Assembly (NCBI RefSeq): GCF_013167455.1
Contig: NZ_CP038328.1
Reading direction: 5' to 3' (one strand)
From: Escherichia coli O157:H7
GTDB lineage: Bacteria; Pseudomonadota; Gammaproteobacteria; Enterobacterales; Enterobacteriaceae
DNA: 64,000 nucleotides
In this document: piece by piece, positions 38,101 to 41,100 of the stretch
Layout of the letters: every line of letters begins with the position of its first letter
How positions within the stretch are numbered: position 1 is the first letter of the stretch
Program-made: the position numbers

Positions 38101-41100
38101 TTTCAATACATGGCTCCCCATAATCATATCTACATGCTGAGCGTTCAGTTCCCAACCATCAAGAAAGGGATTCCAGACACAGGCAAGTTTCCTTTGCTGA
38201 TCATCAGCAATCATTTTATAATCTGATTTATTGGAATTAAGTGCCTCAATAAATTTCTCTTTGAGTTCATTATCAGAAATGAGTATATCCAGAATACCAG
38301 AAACGAAATTCTGGGAAAAAGCTTTATGATAAGGAATACTGAAAATTGGAAATGATTCAGAAAAAAGATTGCTCAATGAATACCCAAATGTATTTTGAAC
38401 TTCTCCATCCTTATATAAAAAAAAGGACATCCAATTAGTTGATGTATTAGGAGATAACATATCAACCATATGACTCAAAGAACACATCATTGCCATACCA
38501 TCATCCTGTGATGATAACAAAACCCAGTTATAAGCCAAATCGGAATCATCATCCCAGTCAGGCTTCCCAGAGCCATCGCACAATCCAAAATCACTCTGCT
38601 GTGTGACAGGATAAACTTTTTCATTTTTTAAATATACTTCATAGAGTTCCCTAAATCGTTCCTGCATTCCATCACGCCGTGAACCATTCATTACAATTTG
38701 TATAAAGGAACTATTATAAGATACCATCGCACCTGGATGTCGCTCAAAATACATCCCTGCCTGCAATAAACTACCATTCTCCATATACATCATTATTGAA
38801 TTATTAAACCAAGACATTATAGTATCAAAAAAGTCATCACATATAGGCTCGAGCCATTGCTGTATATTTGCGTTGTTCAAATAAGGATGAATACTAAATG
38901 AATCAGCCAAAGACATCTTAACATAGGGCCGGAACGCCGCTAATTCGTCAAGAGATATTTTTTTGATAAGTTCTTCAGCGGCCCTTACTTTATCATGGTT
39001 ATACTTATCATCAGATGTATTCATAGTCAATAAAATTGATTTATTTGATTTTGTATAGTTATCCAACACAGATAATATATTTTCCTGTATGTCAGATAGA
39101 TCTATGTAACACCCTCCTAGATTAATGGTATTACTTTTTTCACTAAAGAGCTCCTTTACATCACCTAAGATAGCACCACTTAAAACCATTCCAGGAATTA
39201 TAATAGCTCCTGTTAAATCAGCCTCGTTCAAAATTGGAGGATATTGTATATATGAAGATCCTTTAAATGATGCATTTTTAAGATTGGAATTGCTGAAATT
39301 AGAGTTTTCAAACAAAGCCCTAATAATACAATTAGATAAATTAGCATAACAAAAATTACATTCATTCAAAATCGAGTTTTTAAAAGAACAGTTTTCCAAT
39401 ACAGCCTGAGACAAATCACTCATCCTGAGATCTGTATCATCAAGCACTGCTCCAGAAAAATTTACTGATGATAAATTCAGCCCTACAAGACTTAGACCTG
39501 ACAAGTCACATCCAGAGTAATTCAATTCTTCAGCAGACTCTTCACCCGTTCGGTTAGCTGACAACCAAATTAAGTCAGCAGTAAGCTCAGCTTTGCTCAG
39601 GCAGGCACGGCCTTGACTGACATCATATGCAAGGAATTGACATTGCGATTCATTTAATGAATTACAGCCATTTAAATATACGGAATTTCTGAGTGCCTCA
39701 GGAAAGGAACCTTCTATATGTTTCAAAGAACTACAATGGCATAAAGATAAATTAATGACATTTTCAGGTATGCTGCAATTTATAACCTCTAATGATGAGC
39801 ATCCAACCATACTTAATGAAGATAAGTTGGGGGGTAAGCAGTTTATTGATTTAAGCTCTGTACATCCATTCAAAACCAGTTCTTTCAGAGAACCTGGAAG
39901 CAAGTCTGGTAATGTTGTTATTGGCTCACTGATTGATAAAGTCTCTCCATTAGTACTTATAACATCAAGTATTTTTGATGCAACCTCATGACGATTTTCG
40001 CTAAATTCTCCCTCAGCACACCACTTTTCGAGGGCAACTTCAACATCCTCGTTAGATGGTGAATCTACAGGACTTTCAAAAGATATTACTCCAGAATTTA
40101 CAGAGATATTTGTAGTGGGCAGCATTTATCTCACTCCTTTTTACTTAGTCCACTAAAGTAAAATTAGAAAACACAACTGCCGGGACAACTTTCTGTCCCT
40201 GTACCCACAAATAAGATGTCAGATTTATCGGCATTAATTTAACTCCCTATTGAATTATCTCCTCTTTTTTATCTAACAAATATTCCCCGGACATGACAAC
40301 AAAAACCGGAGCCGGACTCCGGTTTTGTGAAGCTGTCGGAATACGTGTCTGGTACCAGCCTTCGTTCATCTGACGGCGGAATCCCGGCATCTGCAGCGAC
40401 AGGGCACGGATGGCTTCCGCTGCCGTGTTCACGTACAGGCTGAGGCGGCGGCCAAATCGTTGTAAATCCCCGTGAAGGCAGATACGTGCCAGTGGCGGTG
40501 ACGCCAGGCTGAATGCGTTCGTCGTTGCCATTTTTCGGAATACCTCTCCCGTTTACTCAGTTGTTCAGGCAGATGGTGAAGCAGTTCACCGTTGCCGCAG
40601 TATATGGCGGCATGATTGGCCACCGATGCGCCAAAGCAGCACAGCAGGATATCGCCCGCCTGTGCAGAGGACAGGGGCACCCGGTAAAAGCCGGTGACCG
40701 CCATATTGTCCAGGTAAAGGTTCTGACCGTTGCGCCACCAGTCATCCTCACGCTCAAAATCCGGCATATCAATTCCCGCCAGATGGTAGGCATCCCGGAA
40801 CAGCGTGTAACAGTCCGTCACCCCGTGCTCAAAGCGCCGTCCTGTCAGATGTGGCACACAGCGGAATTTATGAATTTCCCCCCGGCAGACCAGCCACCAG
40901 GACAGTGCACTTTTTATCTGCAGCCGCCGGTCGGCCTCGCTCAGCCAGGGCAGACCACCGGGGTGGCTGTGGACCAGTGCCACAATCTCCCCCTGCATTT
41001 CTGCCCGCAGCCAGTCCTCCGGCGACATCCGGAAATAATCTTCCGGCTCACCGGAGATATTCACGCAGGGAAAATATCTTTCCCCTTCCGGCGTTCTCAC

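Follow-up and report, generated by a model that had tools for sequence, protein, structure and literature searches.

The known tail defect of prophage Sp6 of Escherichia coli O157:H7, which was catalogued and tested in 2009 and is a case of ordinary prophage decay, very probably goes back to a single deletion of about 6.5 kb in a prophage that already carried its effector cargo. The ancestor would have had the order H-M-L-(ant)-K-I-J-lom-stfN-stfC-terminator-(nleL, espN, ..., espK)-attR, and one deletion would have joined I, cut at codon 64/65, to sequence starting right behind the stop codon of the tail fibre gene. J, lom and both side tail fibre genes would have gone entirely, along with the final two thirds of I. 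The I stub of 64 codons left behind would then be read through the former terminator of the late operon, gaining 30 codons without meaning. Added here are the nucleotide-level event (between I codon 64/65 and a point directly behind the fibre stop, with 1 nt of microhomology), its polarity (cargo and IS2 both predating the loss, as they occur in an O55:H7-type prophage whose tail genes are intact) and a census of complete genomes (274 with the deleted form, 231 with the intact adjacency). We found no published account of the exact Sp6 deletion, or of its dating relative to O55:H7, in the searchable literature.

We analyzed a stretch of 64,000 nucleotides (hereafter the window), which contains the lambda-like prophage Sp6 with the potB end of its potC/potB site. 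It was assigned to Sp6 by the potB flank, the junction between the truncated I gene (I') and the terminator, and the nleL-espN-IS2-espO1-1-espK cargo, all of which are the same in Sp6 of strain Sakai. Across the 11 kb of positions 33000..44000, the window matches Sakai Sp6, and many other O157:H7 genomes too, at 99.9% identity. Over 40.8 kb, the window and Sakai share 99.0% identity (about 1% divergence) with 16 gap openings, the Sp7 region being far more divergent, which rules out that the window is Sakai itself; the closest complete genome is that of ECP19-598 (99.7% identity). The potC (int) end of Sp6 lies outside the window and was seen in Sakai only, and the content of the roughly 14 kb of Sp6 past the window end is likewise known from Sakai only. 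The Sakai annotation runs potB, espK, espO1-1, an nleB2-2 fragment, IS2, a short fragment, espN, espX7/nleL, a 30-codon ORF, a truncated “tail assembly protein”, K, ant, L, M, H and the head genes. We take CP-933O of EDL933 to be the equivalent of Sakai Sp6. The gene order H-M-L-K-I of lambda and its K/I overlap are also kept in Sp6. As a second reference we used the Stx2c phage 2851 (NC_049943.1), which matches the window at 98.6% identity across 15.1 kb of its head and tail module and, like Sp6, has an ant moron between L and K; phage 2851 keeps the 3' end of I, J (vhsJ), lomU and the tail fibre genes, all of which Sp6 lacks, and carries the effectors Ibe and NleG7 after the shared post-fibre segment, unlike the Sp6 cargo. 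Coordinates of all features are given in Table 1.

Table 1. Features of Sp6 in the window (positions in the 64-kb window)
Feature	Position	Strand	Basis or remark
espK	29779..31140	+	
espO1-1	31201..31476	+	
nleB2-2 fragment	31556..31729	-	
IS2	31923..33253		
espK/gogB-like fragment, 164 bp	33254..33417		
Remaining cargo to potB (attR) end	29395..33784	.	espK, espO1-1, nleB2-2 fragment, IS2, espK/gogB-like fragment
espN, type III effector, 1133 aa	33785..37186	-	DUF4765 full length; J-sized but unrelated
nleL/espX7, type III effector, HECT-like E3 ubiquitin ligase	37777..40125	-	SopA_C, SopA, pentapeptide repeats
30-codon hypothetical ORF (Sakai ECs_5714), cargo side of junction, between I' and nleL	40145..40234	-	
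I' chimeric ORF, 94 aa, ATG start	40247..40531	-	ORF call
30 foreign codons and stop, in I' frame	40247..40339	-	Normally non-coding post-fibre segment of intact relatives
Terminator-like hairpin, AAAAACCGGAGCCGGACTCCGGTTTT	40301..40326	-	Stem with CCGGAG/CTCCGG, then TTTTTGTTGT on the - strand
Deletion junction GTATTC|CGACAG	40339..40340	read on -	1 nt microhomology
I' proper, surviving 5' 64 codons of I	40340..40531	-	gpI residues 1-64; 1 mismatch in 808 nt to K-I of phage 2851
K, tail gene (JAB + NlpC/P60 peptidase), intact	40429..41166	-	Domains; 245/245 aa, 100% to phage 2851 K
Antirepressor moron (Bro-N + P22_AR_C), between L and K	41220..42098	-	Pfam domains
Arc-family regulator ORF	42621..42875	+	Arc and Ant genes at same position in phage 2851
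L, tail gene, full length	42892..43590	-	95% identity to phage 2851
M, tail gene, full length	43590..43931	-	100% identity to phage 2851
H, tape measure, 1080 aa, full length	43924..47166	-	99% identity to phage 2851
Head-closure gene, 26-bp frameshifting deletion at about 49535	49477..49798	-	Comparison with phage 2851

We performed a blastp search with the chimeric ORF against lambda gpI (223 aa, NC_001416), which aligned its residues 1-64 with gpI residues 1-64 (64% identity, E-value 1e-30) and gave no alignment past residue 64; tblastn placed the gpI match at window positions 40531..40340. An earlier note, made from the sequence alone, had described I as truncated, with homology to gpI for about 60 codons up to a hairpin. 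The truncation stands, with 64 codons retained, and the homology stops 14 nt before the hairpin rather than at it. The Pfam profile Lambda_tail_I (PF06805) scored 37.7 bits (cut-off 23.8) and covered model positions 3-46 of 83, a partial match in place of a complete N-terminal domain. The hydrophobic segment and C-terminal region of gpI (lambda residues 135-223) are missing as well, the alignment having stopped at residue 64. From these matches, the I' locus is best regarded as a gene fragment and would not encode a functional member of the gpI family. K lies upstream, its 3' end overlapping I' as in lambda, and J is absent downstream. Because the I frame is conserved upstream of the K stop codon, the data support a start of I at the ATG of position 40531, as annotated in lambda.

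Tblastn searches of the 64-kb window returned nothing credible for lambda J, lom, stf-401 and stf-314 (E-value up to 10) and no match for J, lom, stfN and stfC of phage 2851 (E-value up to 1e-5), and remnants of J, lom and stf, sought across the whole window including the Sp7-like element, were not found. No ORF in the window is a homologue of the tail tip (host specificity) protein J, so the absence of J, lom and tail fibre genes reported in the earlier note was borne out. The note had proposed to look for these genes in the rest of the genome; in the remainder of Sakai Sp6 (int to Q, beyond the window end) there is also no J or fibre gene. The genes that come next are effectors, as it had stated (nleL/espX7 and espN, Table 1). 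We considered the 1133-aa ORF as a diverged J (1132 aa in lambda) and rejected it, since it is a full-length DUF4765 protein, EspN, without similarity to J.

To locate the breakpoint, we aligned the junction with intact relatives. Window positions 41147..40339 align to positions 1671..2479 of the locus from O103 RM8385 (L004) with 95.8% identity, and positions 40339..40000 align to 9001..9340 of the same locus with 99.7% identity. The DNA missing from Sp6 amounts to 6,521 bp by comparison with O103 RM8385 and 6,562 bp by comparison with phage 2851, and the endpoints are the same with either relative. The left endpoint is at I codon 64/65 and the right one 1-2 nt past the TAA that closes stfC, the C-terminal tail fibre gene (in O103 RM8385); in another intact relative (L007), the post-fibre segment begins directly at the annotated end of stfC. 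Read directly from the alignment, the breakpoint is thus an exact one, a loss of about 6.5 kb that takes away the last two thirds of I together with J, lom, stfN and stfC. We searched the endpoints for longer microhomology or repeats and found none, a single C being shared (GTATTC and GTAACC, 4/6 similar). Because the microhomology is just 1 nt, the deletion would have arisen by illegitimate recombination. The right endpoint, 1-2 nt past a stop codon, is a coincidence without explanation that counts against a random deletion. We found the Sp6-type junction between I' and the terminator in 274 of 5,426 complete E. coli genomes (two of the four listed full-length examples are O157:H7, and the titles of the other two name no serotype); since these are independent complete genomes, the junction is not an assembly artefact.

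The hairpin beside the junction exists, as the earlier note had it: by eye, the - strand has a GC-rich stem followed by TTTTTGTTGT, and folding of the 61-nt context gave -24.1 kcal/mol (z = -3.08 against shuffles). A simple terminator scan of positions 39900..40700 did not flag it and reported nothing, perhaps, as a guess, because the stem takes in the A/T tracts; folding and reading of the sequence were used for confirmation. The 68-180 nt at the junction are a generic post-fibre sequence, kept after stfC or other fibre genes in many lambdoid prophages with differing cargo, such as nleC (OkiPb01711) or Ibe/NleG7 (phage 2851). Because this segment lies after stfC in relatives, we assign the 30 extra codons of I' and the hairpin to the normally non-coding post-fibre segment. 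The hairpin would be the terminator that normally stands 3' of the tail fibre gene, brought beside I' by the deletion.

The ancestral architecture can be observed directly in relatives. In the O103 RM8385 prophage, H-M-L-K-I(192 aa)-J(1157 aa)-lom-stfN-stfC is followed by the Sp6 post-junction sequence, nleL, espN and espK. In O55:H7 DEC5E (NZ_CP038383.1), the potB site used by Sp6 is occupied by a prophage whose K, I, J, lom, stfN and stfC are all intact and precede this cargo; in these two relatives I has 192-193 aa and J 1157 aa. Window and DEC5E have in common the terminator, the small ORF, nleL, espN, IS2, espO1-1, espK and the effector fragments, and positions 40339..28000 of the window are 99.87% identical to DEC5E over 12,340 bp with zero gaps. 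Because the identical cargo follows intact tail genes in DEC5E in a gapless alignment, the effector cargo is older than the deletion. The loss of the tail tip would be a separate event that came later than the gain of the cargo, with effector gain and tail loss unlinked. We infer a single deletion within the prophage, after the split from an O55:H7-like ancestor.

The two flanks of the junction have different affinities. The K-I' segment is identical to phage 2851 at 807 of 808 positions, with one mismatch 7 nt from the junction, a site where Sp6 differs from all three relatives; the same segment has 48 mismatches in 808 positions against DEC5E (94% identity), whereas the first 2,563 bp of the cargo have 5. 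DEC5E also has another lambda-type tail shaft module, its H gene having 2580 nt compared with 3243 nt in the window. An illegitimate join of two elements, a 2851-like phage broken in I and the cargo arm of a resident O55:H7-type potB prophage, would fit the resemblance of the left flank to phage 2851 and of the right flank to DEC5E, as well as the different type of tail module in DEC5E. We nevertheless consider such a join very unlikely. The O103 RM8385 prophage combines this cargo with a tail module of the Sp6 type, placed upstream and intact in I-J-stf, and therefore a homologous module exchange followed by the deletion suffices; lambdoid prophages in O157 swap modules freely (Asadulghani et al., 2009; PMC2669165). 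We favour a module swap by homologous recombination before the deletion as the simpler course, and the functional outcome is equal under a deletion or a two-element join.

The earlier note had also held that the acquisition of effectors cost phage function, and this does not agree with the relatives, where the same cargo follows intact I-J-lom-stfN-stfC (DEC5E) and the intact stfC-terminator-nleL adjacency occurs in 231 of 5,426 complete E. coli genomes. Listed examples of this adjacency include O103, O45:H2, O111:H8 and O55:H7; rows of the same query coverage from O145, O121:H19 and others are candidates for it. Taken together, the deleted junction (274) and the intact adjacency (231) account for 505 of the 506 genomes with this nleL upstream region. 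That an effector cassette inserted into or replaced the tail-tip region, destroying I, J and the fibre genes, would fit the effectors occupying exactly the expected place of J in the window, but is exceedingly improbable, given that the same cassette with the same first nucleotide follows intact J-lom-stfN-stfC in DEC5E (same potB site) and O103, that these 231 genomes keep the adjacency, and that the junction segment is generic post-fibre sequence in prophages with other cargo. The intact relatives have an effector cargo locus between the fibre genes and attR, and with a later deletion as the preferred reading, this locus in Sp6 has its fibre genes deleted and its cargo and attR side unchanged. 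The “exchangeable effector locus” of lambdoid prophages, reportedly described by Tobe et al. in 2006, is said to hold type III effectors between the tail fibre genes and attR.

Tail assembly in lambda starts from J. In the lambda virion, the lumen of the tip is plugged by a trimer of residues 135-223 of the 223-aa gpI, which are bound to gpJ by beta-sheet augmentation (PMC10721106), whereas Sp6 has neither this part of gpI nor J. Because the stub corresponds to residues 1-64 and J is absent, no tail-tip complex is to be expected from Sp6's own genes, and the tail-tip initiator could not form from them. Sp6 alone would be tail-defective, and its movement would need I, J and fibre proteins from co-resident lambdoid prophages. 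The tail defect put forward in the earlier note agrees with the published record, in which Table 1 of Asadulghani et al. (2009; PMC2669165) enters Sp6 as “minor tail D” (defective) and “host specificity -” (absent), and its qualifier “without complementation” agrees with the published phenotypes, which were obtained with Sakai Sp6, about 1% divergent from the window. Sp6 was found to excise spontaneously, and Sp6::Cm was transferred at low frequency from O157 Sakai to K-12 MC1061 (4(+/-3) colonies; PMC2669165, Table 2), where it integrated at the same locus, while K-12 lysogens of Sp6 yielded neither particles nor infective phage; those authors concluded that other Sakai prophages supply the functions missing from Sp6 (PMC2669165). 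Possible helpers are marked by DNA homologous to J, which we detected at 9 sites in the Sakai genome and at 10 in that of ECP19-598.

The tail and head operons, described in the earlier note as otherwise complete, turned out to carry further lesions. All late proteins compared except head-closure are full length, with 87-100% identity to phage 2851 (95-100% for head and tail): TerL, the capsid/protease protein, portal, tail terminator, V, G, T, M and K at 100%, H, Ad1 and gp10 at 99%, and L and TerS at 95%. The head-closure gene of the window has a 26-bp frameshifting deletion that fuses it to a gp10-like gene, resulting in a 255-aa ORF (49031..49798), and Sakai Sp6 does not share this deletion. 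Best-place identity of the head-closure matches was at most 95% in 1,247 of 1,248 records and 95-99% in one further, unlisted record; all 12 matches listed show a 26-nt gap relative to the window, and none of those listed carries the deletion, which is either private to this strain or a sequencing error. Sakai Sp6 has a frameshift near the C-terminus of portal, a gene that is intact in the window, and its portal and head were scored as defective (Asadulghani et al., 2009; PMC2669165). The secondary lesions thus differ per strain (portal in Sakai, head-closure in the window) and point to relaxed selection after the loss of the tail tip. In ECP19-598, these late genes are annotated without pseudogene flags and at phage 2851 lengths.

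We think it unlikely that the tail-tip loss is a maintained state in which Sp6 persists as an effector carrier dependent on helpers. In that case, selection, or gene conversion from the lambdoid prophages that share its host, may preserve the head and tail-shaft genes in near-intact form, and Sp6 would borrow I, J and fibres, and hence its host range, from whichever helper is induced. The near-intact late proteins, the unflagged genes of ECP19-598 and the low-frequency transfer from Sakai (PMC2669165) speak for such a state; the strain-specific secondary lesions (the Sakai portal frameshift and the 26-bp deletion of the window), which suggest relaxed selection, speak against it. The core of this idea was already proposed in 2009, and our data support it weakly. 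Although it may behave as helper-dependent, Sp6 does not belong with helper-dependent satellites of the P4 or PICI type, which lack their own genes for capsid, tail and packaging and have dedicated functions to hijack a helper; Sp6 still has terminase, capsid, portal and tail shaft genes that are 95-100% identical to those of phage 2851, a functional phage.

Two observations concern annotation. In Sakai, the truncated I is annotated from a GTG at 40432 instead of the ATG at 40531. The chimeric I' protein, moreover, causes an annotation artefact, in that it makes PGAP call a “tail assembly protein” pseudogene 3' of the tail fibre genes in intact prophages.

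The head-closure gene of Sp6 in the window has lost 26 bp relative to both phage 2851, an Stx2c phage with intact tail genes, and the Sakai strain. The deletion is flanked by a short CCG repeat and shifts the reading frame, producing a 255-aa head-closure/gp10 fusion ORF. The 26-nt gap was found at this site with 12 of the 12 matches listed and with the identity bands, one record outside that list standing at 95-99%; the deletion could reflect either a mutation confined to this genome or an error in sequencing. For the portal gene, the window copy is 100% identical to that of phage 2851, whereas the Sakai copy is frameshifted close to its C-terminus (833 aa versus 859 aa), so either the secondary lesions of Sp6 vary among O157:H7 strains or recombination has repaired copies of it. 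Off-diagonal BLAST hits also revealed repeats inside the window portal gene, at offsets of ~162 and ~324 bp and 87-91% identical.

At the tail deletion, a single base differs 7 nt from the junction, CAGACACG in the window versus CAGATACG in phage 2851, O103 and O55:H7 alike. This change might be a trace left by the joining itself, or a point mutation that arose afterwards. In three intact prophages, PGAP calls a "tail assembly protein" pseudogene with a missing N-terminus on a segment that is non-coding and lies 3' of the tail fibre gene. We infer that the segment matches the C-terminal stretch of 30 foreign codons in the chimeric I' protein of Sp6, and the call looks like an annotation artefact spread from the O157:H7 deletion form.

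Within the effector cargo, IS2 is flanked by a 164-bp gogB-like remnant that is 95% identical to the espK 3' end. The identical layout of IS2, espK-like fragment and truncated nleB2-2 is already present in O55:H7 DEC5E and is therefore older than the tail deletion.

Coordinates of the features discussed
Feature	Sequence	Position
Sp7-like element	window	17632..22200
espK 3' end	window	30986..31149
nleB2-2, truncated	window	31556..31729
IS2 and flanking fragment	window	31923..33417
Substitution	window	40347
Fusion ORF	window	49031..49798
Head-closure gene	window	49477..49798
26-bp deletion	window	about 49535
Portal gene	window	50140..52716
Portal repeats	window	50585..51190
Portal gene, frameshifted	Sakai Sp6 (L001)	36156..38731
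PGAP pseudogene	O103 RM8385 prophage (L004)	9001..9093
PGAP pseudogene	O55:H7 DEC5E potB prophage (L007)	12202..12294
PGAP pseudogene	another intact prophage (L005)	7001..7078

Upstream of roxA/pepT/potA, the Sp7-like element showed strong divergence from Sakai Sp7, with patchy identity of 78-97% compared with 99% for the remaining sequence, which indicates that this strain holds a different variant of the degraded element.
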